A DNA stretch of 15,676 nt, taken from the NCBI RefSeq assembly GCF_003334305.1, contig NZ_QOWS01000041.1; one strand, given 5' to 3'. The position numbers were made by a program, and so were the translations under genes. This DNA is from Escherichia coli. Its GTDB lineage: Bacteria; Pseudomonadota; Gammaproteobacteria; Enterobacterales; Enterobacteriaceae. The notes beneath the pieces are model-generated. The model worked only from the letters and a program-made list of their open reading frames with translations. It was not told the origin of the DNA and ran no database searches. Shown piece after piece: positions 15,300-15,599 of this stretch (the first letter of the stretch is position 1; every line of letters begins with the position of its first letter).

Positions 15300-15331
15300 G
15301 ATTTAGTACCTATAGTGAGCAAAATTAGAAT

Positions 15332-15372
15332 AAACATAGCAACTACTATGTTTTATAGCAGAAGCTATAAAA
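15332..15372 (-). promoter_or_regulatory. Two adjacent palindromic operators upstream of sitA: an MntR-type box and a second box sharing the ATAGC half-site
   Basis: AAACATAGC-AACT-ACTATGTTT at 15332..15353 resembles the enterobacterial MntR operator (AAACATAGC...GCTATGTTT, recalled from memory). It overlaps TTTTATAGC-AGAA-GCTATAAAA at 15351..15372, which has perfect 9-bp arms. Confidence 0.6.
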
Positions 15373-15373
15373 T

Positions 15374-15392
15374 GTAAATAATTATCATTAGC
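15374..15392 (-). promoter_or_regulatory. Fur-box-like site upstream of sitA
   Basis: GTAAATAATTATCATTAGC matches the Fur consensus at 14 of 19 positions and lies directly upstream of the MntR-like boxes. Confidence 0.45.
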
Positions 15393-15599
15393 GATTATAA
15401 GATCCCAACACAGGGATTAGGTTATTTCCTGCTGACGATGTGGTATTGAGGATAAAAGTTGGGCAGCGCTTTGGCTTTAAAATGAACTTGTTCAGGACGA
15501 TTGGTAATGGCAAAGCAAAAATAATGTAGGTTATTGGCAAGTTCTCTAGGACGCAGGAGAGCATGAAAAACCCAGGGGCAGTCACTAAATGAAGGGATC

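Follow-up and report, generated by a model that had tools for sequence, protein, structure and literature searches.

The control region of sitA on the Escherichia coli plasmid segment studied here is, with good probability, a dual-metal operator in which two MntR sites and a Fur box are combined. We infer the binding of MntR and Fur, as well as the promoter positions at sitA, from the sequence and from its relatives in other genomes. According to reviews, both MntR and Fur repress sitABCD in Salmonella and Shigella, in agreement with the dual Mn/Fe repression that an earlier note on this DNA had taken as established; this established picture is left unchanged, and a known paired-site design would be extended to sitA. 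In the accessible literature, to which the primary sit and MntR papers do not belong, no mention of a second MntR site at sitA was found, and an earlier mention is possible.

The window, that is, the whole stretch of 15,676 nucleotides that was analysed, belongs to a large plasmid with siderophore and sit genes. The sitA coding sequence occupies 14385..15299 on the minus strand (ATG at 15299), as given by both the list of open reading frames (ORFs) and the RefSeq annotation of identical DNA, and SitA is the name used in RefSeq records with 100% identity to this ORF. Its product is a periplasmic Mn/Fe-binding protein, and sitABCD starts with sitA and continues with sitB (13558-14385), sitC (12704-13561) and sitD (11850-12707); SitB matches the NCBIfam equivalog PRK15056 with 594 bits (cutoff 393). 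Because sitA is the minus-strand ORF at 14385-15299, the palindromes and the Fur-like 19-mer described below lie upstream of it, and the control region runs along the minus strand from about 15420 to 15300. The minus strand also encodes a TonB-dependent siderophore receptor (receptor-family match) and genes with weak, below-cutoff matches to siderophore synthetases, and this gene content would be consistent with an aerobactin iuc/iut cluster. The crcB fluoride exporter gene (10227-10607) is located between the aerobactin and sit clusters, and neither a fluoride riboswitch nor any other Rfam family was detected within the window.

The sit upstream region is bounded, about 300 bp from the ATG, by the left end of an IS1A element (15600..15676, plus strand), which serves here as context only, lies outside the operator and leaves it intact; the transposase coding sequence starts at about 15655 in identical RefSeq plasmids. 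Hundreds of plasmids from E. coli, Klebsiella and Salmonella share the 351 bp surrounding the operator at 100% identity, and the sitA upstream allele of the window is found unchanged in hundreds of plasmids carrying sitABCD. A related region is present in 2356 of the 5426 complete E. coli genomes searched, on plasmids at an identity of at least 99% and on E. coli chromosomes at 86-90%.

Two overlapping palindromes upstream of sitA, as the earlier note had proposed, were recovered by a repeat finder. The proximal one, AAACATAG-N6-CTATGTTT at 15332-15353, has arms at 15332-15339 and 15346-15353 that are 100% complementary across a gap of 6 nt, and it can also be written with 9-bp arms and a 4-nt gap as AAACATAGC-AACT-ACTATGTTT, with one arm mismatch. 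The distal one, TTTTATAGC-AGAA-GCTATAAAA at 15351-15372, has 100% complementary arms at 15351-15359 and 15364-15372 and a gap of 4 nt. The two 22-mers overlap by 3 bp and start 19 bp apart. For comparison with known MntR operators, ATAGC-N4-GCTAT was used as the core criterion and the K-12 mntH box AAACATAGC-N4-GCTATGTTT as the full reference, and on this basis the palindromes can be described as two predicted 18-bp sites on the minus strand. The promoter-proximal site D, ACATAGTAGTTGCTATGT at 15334..15351 (22-bp description 15332-15353), agrees with the core at 9 of 10 positions and with the mntH-type box at 17 of 18, and the promoter-distal site U, TTATAGCTTCTGCTATAA at 15353..15370 (the 22-bp perfect palindrome 15351-15372), agrees at 10 of 10 and 10 of 18, respectively. 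A single base pair (base 15352) separates the 18-bp sites, which gives the 19-bp register.

Allowing at most one mismatch, ATAGC-N4-GCTAT occurs twice in the 15.7-kb window, both times upstream of sitA, against 0.38 occurrences expected. By the core criterion U is the better site in the window allele, since D carries a core mismatch (ATAGT); the palindrome labelled "MntR-type" in the earlier note is D, and the "second" one is U. Thus D and U are both inverted repeats of the kind that characterizes enterobacterial MntR operators, and both lie in the promoter of a manganese-homeostasis gene and are conserved in orthologous promoters. The 19-bp register showed no third or fourth site, the mean core scores reaching at least 4/10 only at offsets +19, -19 and +12.

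The predicted Fur box occupies 15374..15392 on the minus strand and reads GCTAATGATAATTATTTAC on the gene strand. Compared with GATAATGATAATCATTATC, this 19-mer matches at 14 of 19 positions on the plus strand, the value given in the earlier note, and at 15 of 19 on the gene strand; when it is scored as the 7-1-7 motif TGATAATNATTATCA, two mismatches are found (core 12/14). Only two such 7-1-7 matches occur in the 15.7-kb window, against 0.06 expected, the other one being at the iucA end. A Fur-like box just upstream of U keeps a fixed position in most genera, reaching 17/19 in chromosomal E. coli alleles, so that the element combines a consensus match above chance with conservation in orthologues and with a predicted overlap of the -35 hexamer. 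As for the second match in the window, TGATTCTCATTATCA at 8566-8580, it lies at the 5' end of the iucA ORF, beside a divergent 397-aa ORF (8654-9847), and presumably belongs to the Fur control of the aerobactin promoter.

The sitA loci used for comparison came from a scan of species-representative genomes, from four chromosomal E. coli alleles, and from a protein search with exact-protein look-up that contributed Salmonella enterica, S. bongori, Citrobacter koseri, C. rodentium and two Klebsiella/Raoultella-like loci; E. coli and Salmonella loci were absent from the results of the species-representative scan with SitA. In each of the 33 enterobacterial sitA upstream regions there are two cores, no more and no fewer, with a score of 8/10 or higher, and their offset is 19 bp in every case; 29 of these regions reach 9/10 or higher in both cores. 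Such a core pair appeared in none of 6600 dinucleotide-preserving shuffles of the same upstream regions, and the tandem was found at 0 of 57 non-enterobacterial sitA loci (Rhizobiales, Pseudomonas and others), where not even one 9/10 core was present. The tandem upstream of sitA is not a product of chance.

Among 20 non-redundant tandems, the core columns carry 1.73 bits on average, while the N4 spacers carry 0.47 and the 5-nt linker 0.68, and the spacing between U and D is invariant, whereas lineages differ in the gap from the Fur box and -35 to U and in how far the tandem lies from the ATG. The site with the greater resemblance to the full mntH-type consensus is not the same in every lineage either: it is D in the window plasmid and in Shimwellia, and U in Cedecea, Klebsiella sp. 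BIGb0407 and Enterobacter R1. Because the consensus-like site swaps between lineages, both sites appear to be under selection, and judged from these sequences the swap argues that U and D may both be functional. Salmonella, Citrobacter and the chromosomal E. coli alleles have a degenerate outer half of U (ATACC, ATGCC, ATAGG, ATTGC), and for this reason U may be weak or dispensable there. Additionally, part of the conservation of U is probably owed to an embedded -10 element.

In many genera the spacers of U and D are mutually reverse-complementary (CTGT and ACAG), turning the 33-bp tandem into one large palindrome (L004, L005, L090 and L001-L003).

The promoter is predicted to be interwoven with these elements. 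A T at relative position 8 is present in U in 17 of the 20 tandems and is not conserved at the matching position of D; together with the G of the core, it yields TG-n-TATAAA and therefore an extended -10. In the window this predicted element, TGcTATAAA, lies at 15352..15360 on the minus strand (TG at 15360-15359, hexamer at 15357-15352) and makes use of the right half of U, the placement of the hexamer being uncertain by about 4 nt. The predicted -35, TTTACA in the window and TTTTCA in relatives, occupies 15373..15378 on the minus strand and overlaps the 3' end of the Fur box. An A is a typical start nucleotide, and the A at relative position 24, 7 nt past the -10 hexamer, is conserved in 16 of 20 tandems; in the window it is the A after the ATAGT of D, at 15344 on the minus strand, and as the predicted transcription start it would leave a leader of 45 nt. 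On this layout, the MntR sites would cover approximately -26 to +11 and the Fur box approximately -48 to -30. The conserved inner T and A can thus be read as the TG of an extended -10 and as the start nucleotide, the alternative being a symmetric protein contact.

A promoter scanner made no call at the junction promoter in the window, because the hexamer has no T at position 6. The only promoter it called there, TTGGGA-16-GATAAT, was rejected as the main promoter, because its -10 is a Fur hexamer and the promoter as such is not conserved outside E. coli; it was not called in Salmonella, E. coli Nissle or Enterobacter.

The close association of palindrome and promoter raises the question of whether the downstream, mntH-like palindrome (15332-15353) alone serves as an MntR operator, while the second consists of promoter sequence, spacer plus -10, and looks like an MntR site by accident or as a vestige. 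The right half of U does coincide with the likely -10, the left half is degenerate in Salmonella, Citrobacter and chromosomal E. coli, and the single full site of K-12 mntH indicates that one can suffice; for Salmonella-like alleles such an explanation is a possible one. As a general account of the tandem it is nevertheless unlikely. Promoter spacers are normally free of sequence constraint, but the outer ATAGC of U is intact, at the exact 4-nt spacing, in 16 of the 20 non-redundant sequences; moreover, the upstream site matches the consensus at 17-18 of 18 positions in Cedecea, Klebsiella sp. BIGb0407 and Enterobacter R1, and the tandem recurs at mntS, mntH and mntP. We therefore keep to the reading of U as a second MntR site.

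Two further explanations would take the palindromes away from MntR. If their role were that of RNA hairpins in the sitA leader, with a U-rich tract after an attenuator or terminator-like structure, and not that of DNA bound by a protein, this would fit a terminator scan that flagged D with a T-rich tail in E. coli Nissle and a 14-bp U/D hyper-palindrome with ATTTTGCTTT in Enterobacter cloacae, and the TTGGGA-16-GATAAT promoter would indeed place both palindromes in the transcript. That promoter is, however, not conserved outside E. coli, the same terminator scan made no call at D or U in the window, no Rfam family matches, and the annotated 5' end of mntS lies inside the downstream site of its own operator. 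The pattern of variation also fits a protein site and not a stem, with arms that are invariant instead of covarying and loops that vary, and complementarity beyond the 5-bp core is often lost, e.g. in Salmonella (TAACATAGC...GCTATATTC); RNA hairpins are thus very improbable. Hardly credible at all is the assignment of the ATAG/CTAT elements to OxyR, or to another regulator than MntR, for peroxide induction of sit. The OxyR consensus is likewise made of ATAG...CTAT elements, and a review names OxyR among the regulators affecting mntH and sitABCD, but the elements at sitA are spaced by 10/9/10 nt instead of the 11/11/11 of OxyR, and the tandem associates with genes of the MntR regulon. A direct search for an OxyR site led to rejection of this candidate, the best match to ATAGnTnnnAnCTAT-N7-ATAGnTnnnAnCTAT being 12/20, a score reached by 41% of shuffles.

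The association with the MntR regulon emerged from a gene-blind scan of metagenome contigs for the perfect tandem ATAGC-N4-GCTAT-N5-ATAGC-N4-GCTAT, in which 80 loci constitute the sample. Among the matches listed, 73 of 80 tandem loci are at MntR-regulon genes (sitA, mntS-mntR, mntH and mntP): 49/80 lie upstream of sitA homologues (two of them cut by contig ends), 19/80 in the mntS-mntR intergenic region or beside mntR, 3/80 upstream of mntH, and 2/80 at a distance of 106 nt upstream of an MntP equivalog; the remaining 7/80 of these listed matches have another or unclassified context. The MntP equivalog downstream of the tandem (L140 1109-1141 and L162 9504-9536) scores 283 bits, with a cutoff of 214. 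Its arrangement differs from that of K-12 mntP, where Shi et al. describe sites that have more than 20 bp between them and lie about 170 bp away from the promoter.

In two contigs (L102 8112-8144 and L144 13733-13765), a perfect tandem in the 19-bp register lies approximately 25 nt upstream of the gene for a putative membrane protein of 114 aa. This protein has no NCBIfam match and is a candidate new member of an MntR-type regulon.

The closest known counterpart of the sitA operator is that of K-12 mntS (rybA), which, when read directly, is TTAGC-AATA-GCTAT-ATAAT-ATAGC-CTGT-GCTAT. As at sitA, two xTAGC-N4-GCTAT sites stand in the 19-bp register, the 18-bp sites being 1 bp apart, and many genera have the mntS site ATAGCCTGTGCTAT, unchanged, as their upstream sitA site. 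The TATAAT -10 of mntS lies at the junction of its two sites and the RefSeq-annotated RybA 5' end falls in the spacer of the downstream site, which resembles the layout predicted here; by analogy, the sitA -10 would lie at the U/D junction. There are also differences, since mntS has no adjacent Fur box and its CTGT-type site is the downstream one, while at sitA this type is found upstream. It has been proposed that mntS derives from the 5' end of an ancestral sitA (Wright et al., bioRxiv), in a study in which the operators are not discussed. The paired-site operator common to both genes, compared at the sequence level, is compatible with this idea, homology of the operators being a possibility only.

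A structural precedent for paired sites comes from Bacillus subtilis, in which cryo-EM of MntR on mneP revealed dimers on 18-bp inverted repeats 1 bp apart that bind cooperatively through dimer-dimer contacts (Shi et al. 2025, Nat Commun; PMC11882963), and the same authors state that the paired sites of E. coli mntS show a spacing identical to that of mneP (PMC11882963). The mneP and mneS arrays of 18-bp inverted-repeat sites, 1 bp apart, are thus like U and D, and the sitA pair (15334-15351 and 15353-15370, with 1 bp between) has the spacing of such an array. In contrast, mneP and mneS have four weak sites upstream of and overlapping the -35 and are activated, whereas sitA has two sites over the core promoter and is repressed, and the half-site sequence of the B. 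subtilis arrays differs from that of sitA. In B. subtilis, Tyr22 is essential for MntR cooperativity and Asp27-Arg58 form a salt-bridge pair (PMC11882963). An alignment of the two MntR proteins shows that Asp27, Arg58 and Gly59 are kept in E. coli as Asp59, Arg90 and Gly91, whereas Tyr22, Lys20, Glu55 and Val61 correspond to Glu54, Val52, Ile87 and Phe93. By analogy, cooperativity of the E. coli protein is plausible and, if real, may involve a partly different interface. The proposal in the earlier note of dual-site or cooperative MntR binding accordingly divides in two: the second palindrome is supported as an MntR site by the 33 of 33 sitA regions, the association with the MntR regulon and the geometry, whereas cooperation of two MntR dimers at sitA would follow only by analogy with B. 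subtilis mneP and E. coli mntS.

Other systems share part of the design. The mntH promoter of E. coli and Salmonella has a Fur box over the -35, followed by the MntR box AAACATAGC-N4-GCTATGTTT around the start, in the same order as at sitA, and it is subject to the same dual Fe/Mn repression as sitABCD. Unlike sitA, K-12 mntH has no 19-bp tandem: it has one full MntR site and an extra CATAGC half-site 11 bp upstream, although some metagenomic mntH loci do have the tandem. This half-site of K-12 mntH (L085 1735-1765) is off the 19-bp register and overlaps the likely -10 (TAGCAT). The orthologous sitABCD promoter of Salmonella Typhimurium has the same layout as the window, with a Fur-like box, an upstream site and the downstream site TAACATAGCAAAGGCTATATTC, but the outer half of its upstream site is degenerate (ATACC) and its -35/-10 spacer is 18 nt, compared with 15 nt in the window. 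DtxR and IdeR, which belong to the same repressor superfamily as MntR, also place more than one dimer on an operator, as is proposed for sitA; in their case two dimers sit on opposite faces of one 19-bp palindrome, while at sitA two palindromes lie side by side.

In the mechanism we propose, the head-to-tail MntR sites D (15334-15351) and U (15353-15370) would span the core promoter in a 19-bp register, the inner half of U would contain the -10 (TGcTATAAA), and D the predicted start. When manganese is sufficient, one Mn-MntR dimer would occupy each site and RNA polymerase would be blocked, and Fe-Fur, bound to the box at 15374-15392 overlapping the -35, would repress independently. With the -10 in the U/D junction and the Fur box over the -35, both repressors would thus block the core promoter. 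sitABCD encodes a virulence-associated Mn/Fe importer, and with two MntR sites in its operator the shut-off of this importer would set in at a sharper manganese threshold; such an operator would also account for the integration of Mn and Fe signals over a stretch of about 60 bp. Moreover, the invariant spacing offers a clean test case for cooperativity of E. coli MntR, which has so far been deduced by analogy for mntS.

A broader proposal, which we regard as possible but rather doubtful, is that MntR control in Enterobacterales began with, and has always required, the paired operator in the 19-bp register with its built-in -10; this would hold for sitA and mntS and, in some taxa, for mntH and mntP as well. 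The unit of selection would in that case be the pair and not the single site, MntR would bind as an obligate dimer of dimers, and the operator of mntS would be a retained sitA operator; the interface between the dimers would have to differ from that of B. subtilis, because Tyr22 is replaced by Glu54 in E. coli. If this is true, selection on the pair would explain the swap of the strong site between lineages, and a retained sitA operator at mntS would provide support at the DNA level for mntS as a remnant of sitA.

The plasmid allele differs from the chromosomal E. coli alleles at several points of this layout. A 2-bp deletion between the -35 and U (15369-15373, compared with L081-L084) shortens the -35/-10 spacer to 15 nt, against 17 nt on the chromosome; in most genera this spacer is 18 nt. 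The U core is perfect in the plasmid allele and reads ATAGG or ATTGC in its outer half in the chromosomal alleles, the D core of the plasmid allele has one mismatch (ATAGT), unlike that of the chromosomal alleles, and the Fur box is weaker, with 15/19 matches against 17/19. These differences may reflect allele-specific tuning of expression.

Beyond the operator, two further elements were observed. The sitA 5' leaders of Salmonella, Citrobacter, Klebsiella-like bacteria, Enterobacter, Pluralibacter and Shimwellia (L087 770-785, L090, L002 and others) share a conserved TTAATTAACCA / TTTAACCA element that the E. coli sitA alleles lack. In the window, a terminator-like stem-loop, GATCCCAACACAGGGATT, is located at 15401-15418, upstream of the Fur box; chromosomal E. 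coli alleles retain a related form of it, and a gene formerly located upstream may have had it as its terminator.
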